Source: Eledone cirrhosa (taxonomy: Eukaryota). Taken from it: DNA of 64,000 nucleotides. The stretch spans positions 289,602,001 to 289,666,000 of the forward strand of contig OZ024741.1 in the NCBI GenBank assembly GCA_964016885.1, written 5' to 3'. The position numbers were made by a program, and so were the translations under genes. The notes beneath the pieces were generated by a model. That model was not told the origin of the DNA, did no database searches, and saw only the letters and a program-made list of their open reading frames with translations. Shown in pieces: positions 5,933 through 60,108 of the stretch; position 1 is the stretch's first letter, and every line of letters starts with the position of its first letter.

Positions 5933-6105
5933 GAACTGAGGAAATGTGGTAAGGAGCCAGGTGGACCATAACGCACTGAAGTACTCAATACTTAGGGTAG
6001 TAGAGTGGGTAATAGGAACGAGTAGGACCCCAACGGCTGAGCTCAGTCCAGAATTAGCCGTCGAAACGGGTTGAGCTCAGCCGTCGGGGTCCTACTCGTT
6101 CCTAT
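5933..6105. mobile_element. Palindromic family copy (subfamily A), right arm ends at GTTCCTAT
   Basis: Homologous to 19896-20170, (AT)n on both sides, internal deletion in the hairpin. Confidence 0.85.
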
Positions 6106-7879
6106 ATATATATATATATATATATATATATATATATATATATATATATATATATATATATATATTTATATTTATATATATAGATAGATGGATACATAGG
6201 TAGTTATCTTCTTTTCCCGTATTTCCTGAATGAAAAGGAATGTCTATATTTTAATCAAAGAGTTTTTAGAACTTTGCCTGACTAACCGTTTCCTTATTCC
6301 AATATTTCTTGGTTTTCTTCTTTTAATACTTCCCACTCTCCCACTACAAGCCCAACCTTTTGCCTTCTAACTTCCGTATATACATATATATATATATATA
6401 TATATATATATATATTGTGATATATATAAATATATATATATATATATATATATACACACATTCATATATATATATATACTGTATATATTTATATATGTAT
6501 ATATATATATATATATATATATATATATATATATATATATATATATATAATTATACATTTATGAGCATGTCCGTGTAGGTGTGTGTGTGTGTGTGTGTGT
6601 GTGTGTGTGTGTGTGTGTGTGTGTGTGTGTGTGTGTGTGTGTGTGTGTGTGTGTGTGTGTGTGTGTGTGTGTGCGCGTGTGTTTTTGTGTGTGTATACAC
6701 AGAATGTGTTGCTTCTCTGCAACCCAGACAGAAATGACAAAAACTACCTTTGAAATTCCCTGAAGTCTTCAGGAAAATATCTGTCAGCCTTGTTGTCAGT
6801 CAGTCTGCCTCTCTCTCTATCTCATTCATCTATCTATACCTTTCTCCAAATTTACGATATGTATTCTCTCTCATACACATTCCCACCCACACAAACTTAT
6901 ATTTACACGTACACACACATACACACACATACACACACGCCCATATACATAACCTCCCACCACAGACTCATATATATATATATATATATATATGTATATC
7001 TACACACACACACACATATATATATATATATACACATATATATATACATGTTTATACATATATGTATATAAATGTATATATACATATGTATATATATGTA
7101 TATATATATATATATATATATATATATATATATATATATATATATATATATATATATATATATATATAAATATATATATATGAATATTTATATATATATA
7201 TAAATATATATATATATATATATTCACACACATATATATATATACACACACACATATATATATATATATATATATATATATGTATGTGTGTGTGTATATA
7301 CACATATATATGTATACATGCATACAACCATACTTATATACATACATACAAACATGCATACATACATACATATATACGTACATACATACATACATGCATA
7401 CATATACACATACATACATACATAAATACATACATACACACATTCATAAATACACACATTCATAAATACATACATAAATACATACATACATAAATACATA
7501 CATACATAAATACATACATACATACATACATACATAAGTACATACACACGTACACACATACATACATACATACATACATACATACATACATACATACATA
7601 CATATGTACATACATACATATGTACATACATATATACATACATACATAAATACATACATACATACACACATATATAAATACATACATATGTACATATAGT
7701 ATAAATAACACAGCCGTAAACCCTTCATTAATGCAAACACCCTTAGACCTGTTAAGGAAAATCTCTTTTTTTACACGATTACTACTGCCATATATTCATT
7801 TATGTGTTTGTGTATGTATGTTATTTTTACCGCCTCTTGCCGACACCCCCCCAACACCACCATTATTACCATCATCAGC

Positions 7880-9050
7880 TCTAGTGCTACCACCATCACC
7901 ATCGCCATCACCATCACCAGGTACACCATCACCATTACCATCGCCATCACCATCACCAGGTACACCATCACCATCACCATCACCATCACCAGGTACACCA
8001 TCACCATCACCAGGTACACCATCACCATCACCAGGTACACCATCACCATCACCATCACCATCACCAGGTACACCATCACCATCACCAGGTACACCATCAC
8101 CATCACCATCACCATCACCAGGTACGCCATCACCATCACCATCACCAGGTACACCATCACCATCGCCATCACCATCACCAAGTACACCATCACCATCACC
8201 ATCGCCATCACCATCACCATCACCAGGTACACCATCACCATCACCATCGCCATCACCATCACCAGGTACACCATCACCATCACCATCACCAGGTACACCA
8301 TCACCATCGCCATCACCATCACCATCACCATCACCTTCACCATCACCATCGCCATCACCATCACCATCACCAGGTACACAATCACCATCACCATCGCCAT
8401 CACCATCACCATCACCATCACCATCACCATCACCATCACCAGGTACACCATCACCATCACCATCGCCATCACCATCACCAGGTACACCATCACCATCACC
8501 ATCACCAGGTACACCATCAGCATCGCCATCACCATCACCATCACCATCACCTTCACCATCACCATCACCATCACCATCACCAGGTACACCATCACCATCA
8601 CCATCACCAGGTACACCATCACCATCACCATCGCCATCACCATCACCATCACCATCACCATCACCATCACCATCACCATCACCAGGTACACCATCACCAT
8701 CACCACCACCATCACCATCACCATCACCATCACCAGGTACACCATCACCATCACCATCACCAGGTACACCATCACCATCACCATCACCAGGTACACCATC
8801 ACCATCACCAGGTACACCATCACCATCACCATCGCCATCACCATCACCAGGTACACCATCACCATCACCATCACCATCACCATCACCATCATCATCACCA
8901 TCACCATAACCATCACACTCATCAGCATCACCATCACCATCACCACCATCATCACCATCACCATCACCATCATCATCACCATCACCATCACCATCATTAT
9001 CACCATCACCATCACCAACACTACCATCACCAACACTACCATCACCACCA
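7880..9050. repeat. (CCATCA)n array punctuated by CCAGGTACA
   Basis: Read directly from the sequence. Confidence 0.95.
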
Positions 9051-9229
9051 TTACCAGTATCAGAATCACAATAATAACCATCACCATCACGTCCACCGTT
9101 GCCAAAATCCTCCTCCTCCTCCTACTCCTCCTCCTCCTCCTACTCATCATCATCATCAGTACCAGCAACATCAGAAGCACCATCGCCATCCTCATCACCA
9201 CCATGAATATCCCCATCGCTCCAAACGCA

Positions 9230-56755: not shown

Positions 56756-57011
56756 GTATTAAAATCTCTATGGCTGGTTAATTAACTTAGGCAAGGAAAT
56801 CAAAGAGAAAACATATCGCTGAGACCATTGTGTATAAAAACTATTAGATTACTAGTATTCATTAGGATAATGATAATTTATGGTATAAATTATGACAATG
56901 ATTGAAGAAATGATACAAATTTTAAAGGAAAATAACATGACAGAGTATTTAATGTGTCTGAGTCCAGCTAAAATACATTAATATTCGATATTGCTCGCAA
57001 GTTCACCAGTA

Positions 57012-57195
57012 GATTGGCAGTATCGGTAGAGAGTCGGACACCATGCTTTACAGCATAGAGTTACGGCCCTTTATGGTCTGAGTTCAAATCCCGCCGAGGT
57101 TAACTTTGCCTTTCATCCTTACGGGGTCGATGAAATAATGCACCAGTAACGTACTGGAGTCGATTTAATCGACTTTCCCCTCCCCCAAATTACTG
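57012..57195 (+). mobile_element. SINE copy, long form
   Basis: Family consensus including the GTCGATTTAATCGAC hairpin. Confidence 0.82.
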
Positions 57196-59902
57196 ATTAT
57201 GCCATAACGTGAAAAATCTAACGCAAGATGTTGGGAAATTTACAAATTGTAAATTACGTGACAGTGAAGGAAGACAAATGGATGAATAACAATGCATGTG
57301 TAAGTGACTATAGGTTCACACAAATAAACACTAAAGAGCAAAAATCAAGGTGGTGTTTGATGCATGATGGGACGAAAATTGGGTATATGGCAGAGTTAGA
57401 ATCCCGAGGGTGAGCGGAGCAGTTTCAACGGAATTTTTATGACAATTACCCATATATATACACACACACACATATATATATATATATATATATATATATA
57501 TATATATATATATATATATATATATATATATATATATATATATATGTATATATATGTATATATATATATAGAGAGAGAGAGAGAAGAGAGAGAGAGAGAG
57601 AGAAATATATGTATAGATGTATAGATATGAATTTGTGTGTGAATGTATGAGTTGGTGTGATTGCATAGAGAAATAAATGTTGAACTACAGAGCGTTTCAT
57701 ATTTATACTCTACTGATAAATTATTGTTTACAGACAATTATACAACACGAATAGAATTCTATTTGAATACTTGACTACTTGTTCTTTGAATCAAGCTTAC
57801 CAAAATTATACATTTATTCATTCACGTATACATACATACATACTTAAATACATGCCTTTATATATATATATACATACATACATATATATATACATAAGTA
57901 CATAAGCATATATTTATAAATATATATATATATATATATACATATGATACACAAATATAATACTCTCATTCATAAAACATGCTTAGCCATGCAAATATTT
58001 CTAATATATTTCTTATATTTGATGTTAAAGCTACTTCGTTGTCATGATGAATCCATGAATAAAATCATATATATATATATATATATATACATATACTAAA
58101 AAAAAAATATATATATGTATACACATACATACATACATATATGTATATATATATATATATATATATATACACATACATATATATATATATATATATATAT
58201 ATATATATATATATATATATATATATATATATACACATACATACACACACATATATATATATATATATATATATATGGTATGTGTGCATACACATACACA
58301 TATGTATATAGATAGATAGATAGATACATACATACATACATACATACATACATACATACATACATACATACATACATACAATCATGCAAGTGTGTATAAT
58401 TCTAAATATCATACTTGTCATCATCTAATGTGTTTCAGTTTTCTAATAAAACATGTCTAACTCACTCAGCCAAGTGGAAATGTAACTGTATGTGTATGTG
58501 TGTAGTTATTTGGGTGGTTTGGTGGAGGGATGATAGAGGAGGAGGCAGAAAGGCCGTGATTTTACTGATGTTTATCAAAGATTTCATTTTAAATTGTGAT
58601 TCAATAAATAACACATCAACACAAATACACACACACATATACACACAGGCACATACATACATACATACATTCATACATACATACATACATAAATCGTGAT
58701 TCAATAAATAACACATCAACACAAATACACACACACATACACACAGGCACATACATACATACATACATACATACACTTAAGCACACAAACACTTACACAT
58801 ACAAACACACACACAAACATATACATATATATTAATGTGCCTGTGTATTTAAGTGTGTGTCGTGTGTGTTTAAGTGTATGTTTGTGTGTTGCTGTATGTG
58901 TGTTGCTGTATGTGGTTGCATTTGTATCCATTTATGCATACATACATACAAACATACATACATACATACATACATACATACATACATACATACATACATA
59001 CATACATACATACATACATACATACATACATACATACATACATACATACATACATACATACACCTCCACCTAGAGATTTTAAATCAACGCTGCAAAGGAA
59101 TCTATTTTCAGATTCAGGCATTGCTTGATATAACATATTTTATGATAATTCACCGACAAATTTAGCCTTTCGAATACCAGATGCAATCCTGCAGAAGGGC
59201 TTCCAAACAATTTCCCTGAGCGGACATGGGTCCCACGGAGATCAGAGTAAAGGATTCTTGCCCAAGATACCACTCAATGGATTAGAACCCCCGGTCTAAT
59301 GATTACGAAGTTCATTGTTTAACAATTCGGCCATGCTTCATCCGGCTCTAAATGTAATCATAACTAGAGCCCTGTAATACATTCACAGTAGTACTAAGAA
59401 AACACAAGCTGTTCCATAAATAAGAAATGTCAACGATACTTATAAAGAGGGAGAGTAGTCTCTTTAAACTGGACTATTCAGTGCTGAACATCGCCACGCC
59501 TGACGCCCTTCACTTCCTTGTAAATCTACCCCATAATTAAAGTATTTATCGCCGCCTCTTCTTATATGACCATCTGTCATTCTCTCAGTAGGACATCTTC
59601 CTTCTCACTTGTTATGTTAAATATTTAAAGTGTGACAACTGCAGGGACGTGCATGTACACACACATAAACAAACACACACACATACACACACACACACAC
59701 ACATATATATATATATATATATATGCTTATATATATATATACATATACATACACATATATATATATATATATACATATGTACACACATATACATATATAT
59801 TTATATGTTTATATATATATATATAAATATATATATATATACGTATATATATAATATAGAAATATACAATATATATATATATATATATATATATATATAT
59901 AT

Positions 59903-60108
59903 ATAGGAACGAGTAGGACCCCGACGGCTGAGCTCAAGCCGTTTCGACGGCTAATTCTGGACTAAATTTAGTCCAGAATTAGCCGTCGAAACGGCTTGAG
60001 CTCAGCCGTCGGGGTCTACTCGTTCCTACTACCCACCCTACTACCCTAAGTATTGAGTACTTTGGTGCGTTATGGTCCACCTGGCTCCTTACCACATTTC
60101 CTTCGTTA
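59903..60108. mobile_element. Palindromic family copy (A), left arm starts at ATAGGAAC, longest apex
   Basis: Near-perfect ~125-bp hairpin 59903-60028 with apex CTGGACTAAATTTAGTCCAG, plus an ~80-bp unpaired tail. Confidence 0.88.

Follow-up and report, generated by a model that had tools for sequence, protein, structure and literature searches.

Short palindromes carrying half a hammerhead ribozyme in Eledone cirrhosa are probably truncated, inverted insertions of a Penelope-like element with two paired 3' ends

Penelope-like elements (PLEs) of the Hydra clade insert into (TA)n repeats (Craig et al. 2021, PMC8557442). How the tandem and inverted structures and the tails of PLEs arise, and what role the hammerhead plays, are stated there as open questions, and another report sees no obvious way in which the pseudo-long terminal repeat (pseudo-LTR) is regenerated (PMC2377424). 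For Schistosoma Cercyon PLEs, opposite-strand ribozyme pairs 100-700 bp apart have been noted (Cervera and de la Pena 2014, PMC4209133). Here we analyse a stretch of 64,000 nucleotides from Eledone cirrhosa (assembly GCA_964016885.1, contig OZ024741.1, positions 289,602,001 to 289,666,000, forward strand), called the window and numbered from its first base, which holds short palindromes containing half a hammerhead, together with their relatives across the genome and the PLE that is their likely source.

The source element, described below as the parent, resembles Hydra-clade PLEs such as Hydra-1_Obim in its protein (RWK/R, DKT, a CxCX5C linker, no CCHH, and, at the C-terminal end, a GIY-YIG domain with CxxC and CxH) and in its structure, with a (TA)n target, partial tandems, an inverted 5'-truncated copy and a type I hammerhead in the pseudo-LTR (PMC8557442). 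It differs in its tail of 80 nt, against 30-40 in that clade, and in its ribozyme: the Hydra hammerheads of File S2 in PMC8557442 all have a CTGANGA core, a short loop II and a minimal stem III, whereas the E. cirrhosa element has U3-A8, a loop II of 37-39 nt and a stem III of 5-6 bp. Because Hydra-1_Obim has another ribozyme sequence, the present element represents a different family. U3-A8 covariation and a long helix II with G10.1-C11.1 are shared with the Cercyon PLEs, whose ribozymes are nevertheless of a minimal dimer type, in contrast to the full stem III found here (PMC4209133). PAc of Anolis, a Poseidon-clade element (Frangieh et al. 2024, PMC11167929), is alike in having two internal starts of reverse transcription downstream of the hammerhead, an AT-rich target of which both strands are cut and extended, and an uncleaved RNA template. 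It is unlike in that the start showed no difference between strands in vitro and joining was not studied, whereas the genomic copies described here pair the two sites one and one.

The arm 16-mer TAGCCGTCGAAACGGC has 60,943 exact matches in the E. cirrhosa genome (3.0 Gb), and exact short palindromes with an apex of 0-30 nt, lying in (TA)n, number at least 13,928; the reversed control gave none in either search. These palindromes are probably 5'-truncated, 5'-inverted insertions of a Hydra-clade PLE into (TA)n, with paired fixed 3' ends. Positions in the arms are given relative to G12 of the GAAA motif (position 0), so that hammerhead cleavage falls after +22. Two fixed 3' ends, separated by 80 nt, are found in the element: S at +42, where the arm ends at TTCCTA(T), and L at +122, where it ends at CCTTCGTTA(T). 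Genome-wide, 13,060 palindromes carry one S and one L end, against 583 L+L and 290 S+S, the latter two being patterns that can match on both strands. The S+L share is thus about 96.8%, compared to 50% expected for independent ends, and S+S amounts to about 1%. Sixty of the L+L matches were fetched and 52 parsed, giving 23 true L+L copies, 20 S+L copies with a mutated flank and 9 unclear; since many L+L matches prove to be S+L, the pairing rule is if anything stricter than the raw counts suggest. All seven long inverted pairs examined are S+L too. Contigs from runs X1 and X4 (X1 may be the assembly's own sample) enter (TA)n at both S and L. The S end terminates long bodies (as in locus L070) and single-arm copies, and so behaves as a priming site and a true first-strand end. 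We infer that both S and L are priming sites, a parallel to the two internal starts that define the tail of PAc in vitro (PMC11167929).

Apices vary between copies, as the initial annotation had noted, with 61 distinct apices among 72 S+L palindromes; this supports its further suggestion that each copy was formed anew during reverse transcription. The origin from a PLE that it proposed is borne out by the parent element. Of 13 stretches examined between distant opposed matches, six (L063, L064, L065, L068, L069 and L070) align with each other and outline a long element whose inverted arms measure about 0.4-1.9 kb, and the long inverted pairs enclose reverse transcriptase (RT) and GIY-YIG frames. 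In L070 an intact ATG frame (3280-5436) comes after the arm; it forms one open reading frame (ORF) of 718 aa with RT and, at the C-terminal end, a GIY-YIG domain. Its motifs are RLRWR, SDKTG, YRDD, CNCPDRSIC (CxCX5C), AYIGLT, CNLC (CxxC) and CKH (CxH), with no CCHH. Compared by eye with the supplementary alignment of PMC8557442, the protein shows the Hydra-clade feature set, with RWR in place of RWK. Searches of Pfam and PDB with it returned no match; it has 2,058 database relatives, the best of which carries PF01541 (GIY-YIG). The element also displays (TA)n insertion, pseudo-LTR tandems, an inverted 5' copy and a tail, as PLEs do. Judging by motifs and by this alignment, the parent is a PLE of the Hydra clade.

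Two observations concern the surroundings of such elements. In the tandem copy at L070, the downstream 3' untranslated region (L070:5733) lacks about 430 nt that are kept by the upstream copy (L070:2188-2615) and by part of the inverted L arm; arm and body may therefore differ in the part or the template from which they derive. Other PLE families are nested in the same (TA)n regions (L071:2437-3480, L074:1665-2759 and L072:3496-5947), of which two have further Hydra-like GIY-YIG frames and the third is a different PLE; inverted segments are present in all three.

The arm had been read as the 3' strand of stem II followed by GAAA, a stem III of the form CGGC(T)tgagctc(A/T)GCCG, TC and GGGG. This reading holds, and the arm is a genuine hammerhead 3' half, since a parent with the whole ribozyme has been located. 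The parent motif first proposed, CTGANGA-GACGGCTA(A/T)T, has no exact match in the genome, although the parent exists with a TTGANAA core. Looser searches yielded 67 CTGANGA matches, which at the 15 loci examined are chance occurrences in flanks or apices and were rejected as parents. The parent ribozyme reads ACCCC-TTGANAA-G(N)(N)CGGCTA, a loop of 37-39 nt, TAGCCGTC, GAAAC-GGC...GCC-GTC-GGGGT, in which U3-A8 replaces C3-G8. The pattern ACCCC-YTGANRA-G...TAGCCGTC-GAAAC has 4,731 genome matches and none in the control, with all four bases at N7. U3-A8 occurs in 12 of 14 aligned copies, and over the 14 copies 94.4% of cells are paired. The sequence contains the variant core with GAAA, an NUH site, three stems and G10.1-C11.1, and its minimum free energy fold recovers the three-way junction; a compensatory G-C to A-U change in stem II of the diverged family C, described below, also favours the structure. 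The parent thus appears to encode a type I hammerhead with a U3-A8 core that is presumably active as a ribozyme. A subfamily with the core CTGAGAA, a C3-A8 mismatch, has nonetheless spread (L077, L091, L092); its ribozyme may be inactive and tolerated in an active lineage.

The palindromes share a sharp 5' limit. Arm extents are best-split values, as mismatch-tolerant extents overshoot to -22 in some A-type copies (A and B being the two subfamilies told apart by diagnostic bases). Of the 72 S+L palindromes, 33 have a longer arm that ends at -17/-18, while in 14 it stops before -17 and in two it extends past -22; 22 joins are blunt and 20 have a 1-base overlap. The longer arm at the turn is S in 30, L in 29 and neither in 13, so that an impression from few copies, that S arms reach further than L arms, failed on the larger set. 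Arms end at or just short of the A in TTAGT inside loop II, as they also do in single-arm copies and in family C, a diverged family of the same PLE with 133 matches. Family C has the same S and L ends, a different loop II and a longer stem II, and keeps TTAGT at -18; among the first 50 of its 420 exact short palindromes, counted by eye, 14 have -18/-17 joins and four pass -22. Single arms set directly into (TA)n start at -18 in 383 cases and at -17 in 90. Contig depth, which is not copy number, rises about tenfold in the -18 region and drops more than a hundredfold after L.

TTAGTCC/TCAGTCC fits the Initiator consensus, and copying of an RNA cap is expected to leave an extra G. An extra G does precede -18 in 130 single-arm copies, about a quarter, and the extra base is G:C 44:4 among the first 100 of 351 matches at -18, against 18:12 at -17 (p = 0.0012). 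On sequence grounds it is somewhat likely that -18 marks a capped transcription start. The same test inside palindromes (-18: G 36, C 27, A 2; -17: G 25, C 75, among the first 100 of 152) was set aside as confounded. Since the AG is commonly present in the arms, splicing at the AG dinucleotides of loop II was rejected as an explanation. At the turn, some palindromes (L285, L193, L018) contain stretches of (TA)n or poly(A/T), which suggests that the join involved slippage or non-templated synthesis. A contig carrying another organism label (run X5, record 19, on L070:3059-3088) also displays the short palindromic turn, with an L end lying in (TA)n, at low depth.

Comparison of the two arms bears on the number of templates. 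An arm-to-arm comparison, proposed at the outset as a check, put the differences per ~52 nt at 1.9 for arms of one copy and at 5.1 for arms of different copies (139 palindromes). Taking as chimeric those copies whose arms come from different subfamilies at two or more diagnostic sites, there are no chimeras among 64 assigned S+L copies and three among 21 L+L copies, three further L+L copies being unassigned (p = 0.013); one further A/B chimera of the L+L class was found among copies unassigned in the first count. S+L copies with many arm differences resemble the product of scattered mutation. This contrast fits the use of one RNA at both sites and of two RNAs when one site is used twice, and from it we judge single-RNA twin priming by a dimer to be quite probable. 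The S+S chimera result given below does not add support to this.

An RNA starting at -18 would lack the 5' half of the ribozyme, and its S and L sites would lie 60 and 140 nt downstream. The enzyme would cut both strands of (TA)n, and each 3' end would prime, one at S and one at L, with TAT microhomology at both. The two complementary DNAs (cDNAs) would run off the 5' end of the RNA, so that the copies start inside the ribozyme loop, and would be joined by a jump of one onto the other's free end as a template, or by host repair. The same rule, applied to read-through RNAs, would yield the long inverted copies. A PLE protein that is a predicted dimer cuts and extends both strands in vitro, with two internal starts (PMC11167929). 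Paired priming at S and L on one RNA, run-off and joining is, taken whole, the explanation we favour as the likelier one; whether joining would be done by the RT itself or by host end-joining is an even call. Two familiar processes offer comparisons. L1 twin priming, which produces 5' inversions, lets both target strands prime on one RNA; it copies two different adjacent parts of that RNA with a variable second site, whereas here the sites are fixed and the same 5' stretch is copied twice into a palindrome. LTR elements make strong-stop DNA, a short cDNA that runs off the RNA 5' end. An analogous step is conceivable here, if doubtful. A start at -18 with the ribozyme cut at +22 in the downstream pseudo-LTR would give the RNA a 41-nt terminal repeat. 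Near the 5' end of the RNA, priming by the dimer would occur twice; the run-off cDNA would then jump to the RNA 3' end and rebuild the promoter. Palindromes would then be aborted jumps, and the ribozyme would define the landing site. Beside this stands the finding that ribozyme cleavage is dispensable in vitro (PMC11167929).

Several observations weigh against the favoured account of paired priming and run-off. Arms reach -19 to -22 in 23 of the 72 S+L palindromes, often A-type, and the -18 class is inflated by the ambiguity of the TA phase and of the T that the parent has at -19. Families A and B have a TATA-like word near -30, which was dropped as a TATA box since it is missing from family C, and that absence counts on the same side. 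Per direct join, G occurs in 130 of 383 cases at -18 and 18 of 90 at -17 (p = 0.062), and (TA)n tracts themselves end in G:C at 789:88; for these two reasons we place moderate confidence in reading the extra G as a copied cap. Inside palindromes an extra base can stem from templated micro-jumps, and templated insertions, which host end-joining too would produce, are present at many joins. S+S copies include no chimeras among 16 (two more unassigned), though they should need two RNAs or two rounds, and 18 of 82 S+L copies stayed unassigned in the chimera count. For the Poseidon-clade element studied in PMC11167929 the start site was alike on both strands. As to the ribozyme, the parent fold is no more stable than shuffles (z -0.05), Rfam gives no match for the parent hammerhead, with its long loop II and variant core, and the one compensatory change, G-C to A-U in stem II of family C, is the sole such event over 14 aligned copies.

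Paired priming at S and L might instead use two RNAs held by an asymmetric dimer, the arms agreeing because one source locus dominates per cell. That a single insertion can draw on two RNAs is proved by the L+L chimeras, and a dimer is predicted for another PLE (PMC11167929); the scarcity of chimeras in S+L relative to L+L copies, noted above, speaks against it, and we regard it as unlikely. It is likewise improbable that the limit at -18 reflects RT stopping, or the RNA being broken, in loop II. Folding does predict a weak A-U rich hairpin there, its 3' strand at about -22 to -14, and the extra-G test is confounded, yet by that point the enzyme would already have passed the stronger stems III and lower II, the limit and TTAGT stay the same in family C with its different loop, and many long copies cross the point cleanly, as the 4,731 intact ribozymes attest.

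The snap-back first suggested, in which a single cDNA folds at the long stem II and copies itself, draws support from arms far more alike within than between copies and from the turn near stem II. It is very unlikely nonetheless: no palindrome keeps the native loop II (by a pattern covering A-type and some B-type loops), compared with 13,928 having an apex of 0-30 nt; neither arm is systematically longer at the turn; an S-primed cDNA cannot template the 80-nt L tail, with S being the first-strand end; loop-less perfect joins make up 7 of 120; and chimeric arms exist. An independent non-autonomous family amplified from a few masters by the PLE would explain why some apices recur, up to four times in 72, but the great number of distinct apices and the recurrence of the same joins in A, B and C families alike make it highly improbable. 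Re-copying an S+L palindrome from S would yield S+S, and the rarity of that class also makes self-propagation as a ribozyme-less parasite of a PLE, the other origin initially proposed, unlikely. Short, palindromic, TA-flanked and numerous, the copies do recall miniature inverted-repeat transposable elements (MITEs) of a cut-and-paste transposon with TAACGAAGG terminal repeats, a reading whose likelihood is negligible. MITEs have matching terminal inverted repeats, whereas about 97% of the palindromes have unequal S and L ends. The long relatives examined encode RT and GIY-YIG instead of a transposase, no genome-wide transposase search having been made, and TAACGAAGG corresponds, in reverse complement, to sequence within the PLE leader. 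Identity with non-LTR retrozymes was also rejected, as the copies are not tandem units with a whole hammerhead.

Within the window, BLAST with the copy at 59903-60110 as query recovered the seven-copy family of the initial annotation, each copy adjoining (TA)n on at least one side (Table 1). The description of these copies as palindromic is true end to end for one of the seven, at 19896; elsewhere the arms differ in length by some 80 nt. Four of the seven have two arms that extend to the stem II strand, while one arm is much shorter in the copies at 5931, 33443 and 42601. The turn does lie near stem II, as had been seen; it falls on the 3' side of loop II and not at the native hairpin apex. 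The ribozyme 5' core strand is absent from all seven, in agreement with the reported lack of a CTGANGA strand, and neither an ORF fragment nor a ribozyme 5' half of the parent was found in the window. Diagnostic bases of subfamilies A and B agree on both arms of most copies, as claimed for each; the exception is the copy at 19896, whose arms show six differences over ~52 core positions and carry two different B-type spacers. It likely derives from two RNA templates.

Table 1. Palindromic copies in the window, landmarks of copy 7, and loci of the diverged family
Feature	Position	Strand	Description
Copy 1	5931..6105		Inverted L arm (outer end decayed) stopping in stem III, and sense arm from about -20 to S end TTCCTA(T); A at -18 is 6045; A-type
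Copy 2	19717..19872		Inverted arm passing S, outer part lost; blunt join (-14 to -18); sense arm to S end; B-type
Copy 3	19896..20170		Rare L+L full palindrome; blunt join (-14 to -18)
Copy 4	33443..33596		Inverted L arm to -18, then just a 15-nt piece of second arm and a rearranged end
Copy 5	36193..36387		Inverted L arm and sense S arm; join -14/-17, 1-nt overlap; B-type
Copy 6	42601..42786		Inverted S arm to -20 and sense L arm starting at -2; A-type
Copy 7	59904..60108		Inverted S arm and sense L arm, both to about -22, 2-nt overlap; A-type
Copy 7 hammerhead 3' half (type I)	59980..60014	+	Stem II 3' strand TAGCCGTC, GAAA (G12 = 59988), stem III, GTC triplet (C17 = 60010), stem I strand GGGG; matches parent L070:3061-3093
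Position -18 in copy 7 (A of TTAGTCC)	59970	+	Commonest 5' limit of arms; putative transcription start
Copy 7 tail, S end to L end, 80 nt	60029..60108	+	In parent runs on into ORF 5' leader
Family C loci	L346-L357 and G000		Diverged family of same PLE

Copy 1 is flanked on both sides (3367-5417 and 7851-9217) by long tandem arrays with a 9/12-nt period, G-rich and C-rich, in opposite orientation. A decayed non-LTR retrotransposon, which we take to be L1/Tx1-like, occupies 26763-31332 on the forward strand; its ORF1-like frame includes a weak zinc knuckle, and RVT_1 and zf-RVT lie at 28962-29966 and 30751-31332, respectively. For the window, Rfam gave nothing beyond sub-threshold microRNA matches, which fall on microsatellites and hairpins.

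Earlier publications already describe inverted 5' copies, tails, two starts, (TA)n targeting and U3-A8. The available portion of the Hydra-clade account (PMC8557442) contains neither an S+L rule nor a mass of short palindromes, and half-ribozyme palindromes were not found described in the available portion of PMC4209133. Non-LTR retrozymes (bioRxiv 10.64898/2026.07.22.740005) are, like the present copies, short non-coding derivatives of PLE pseudo-LTRs; they occur in tandem, retain the ribozyme entire and are believed to replicate through circles, while the present copies are inverted, ribozyme-less dead ends. In the literature searched we did not find the one-S-one-L rule, the run-off point inside a hammerhead or the mass of minimal palindromes; older subscription literature, Repbase or Dfam may hold the family or a related model.

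Repeats of this kind would be mis-annotated as MITEs or microRNA hairpins, and hammerhead searches that use CTGANGA miss a family with a U3-A8 core. More than 13,000 independent minimal insertion products yield quantitative rules, namely one S and one L end, a shared template and a sharp 5' limit. These rules are directly testable by purified-protein assay, and the palindromes offer a readable record of the poorly understood transposition of PLEs.

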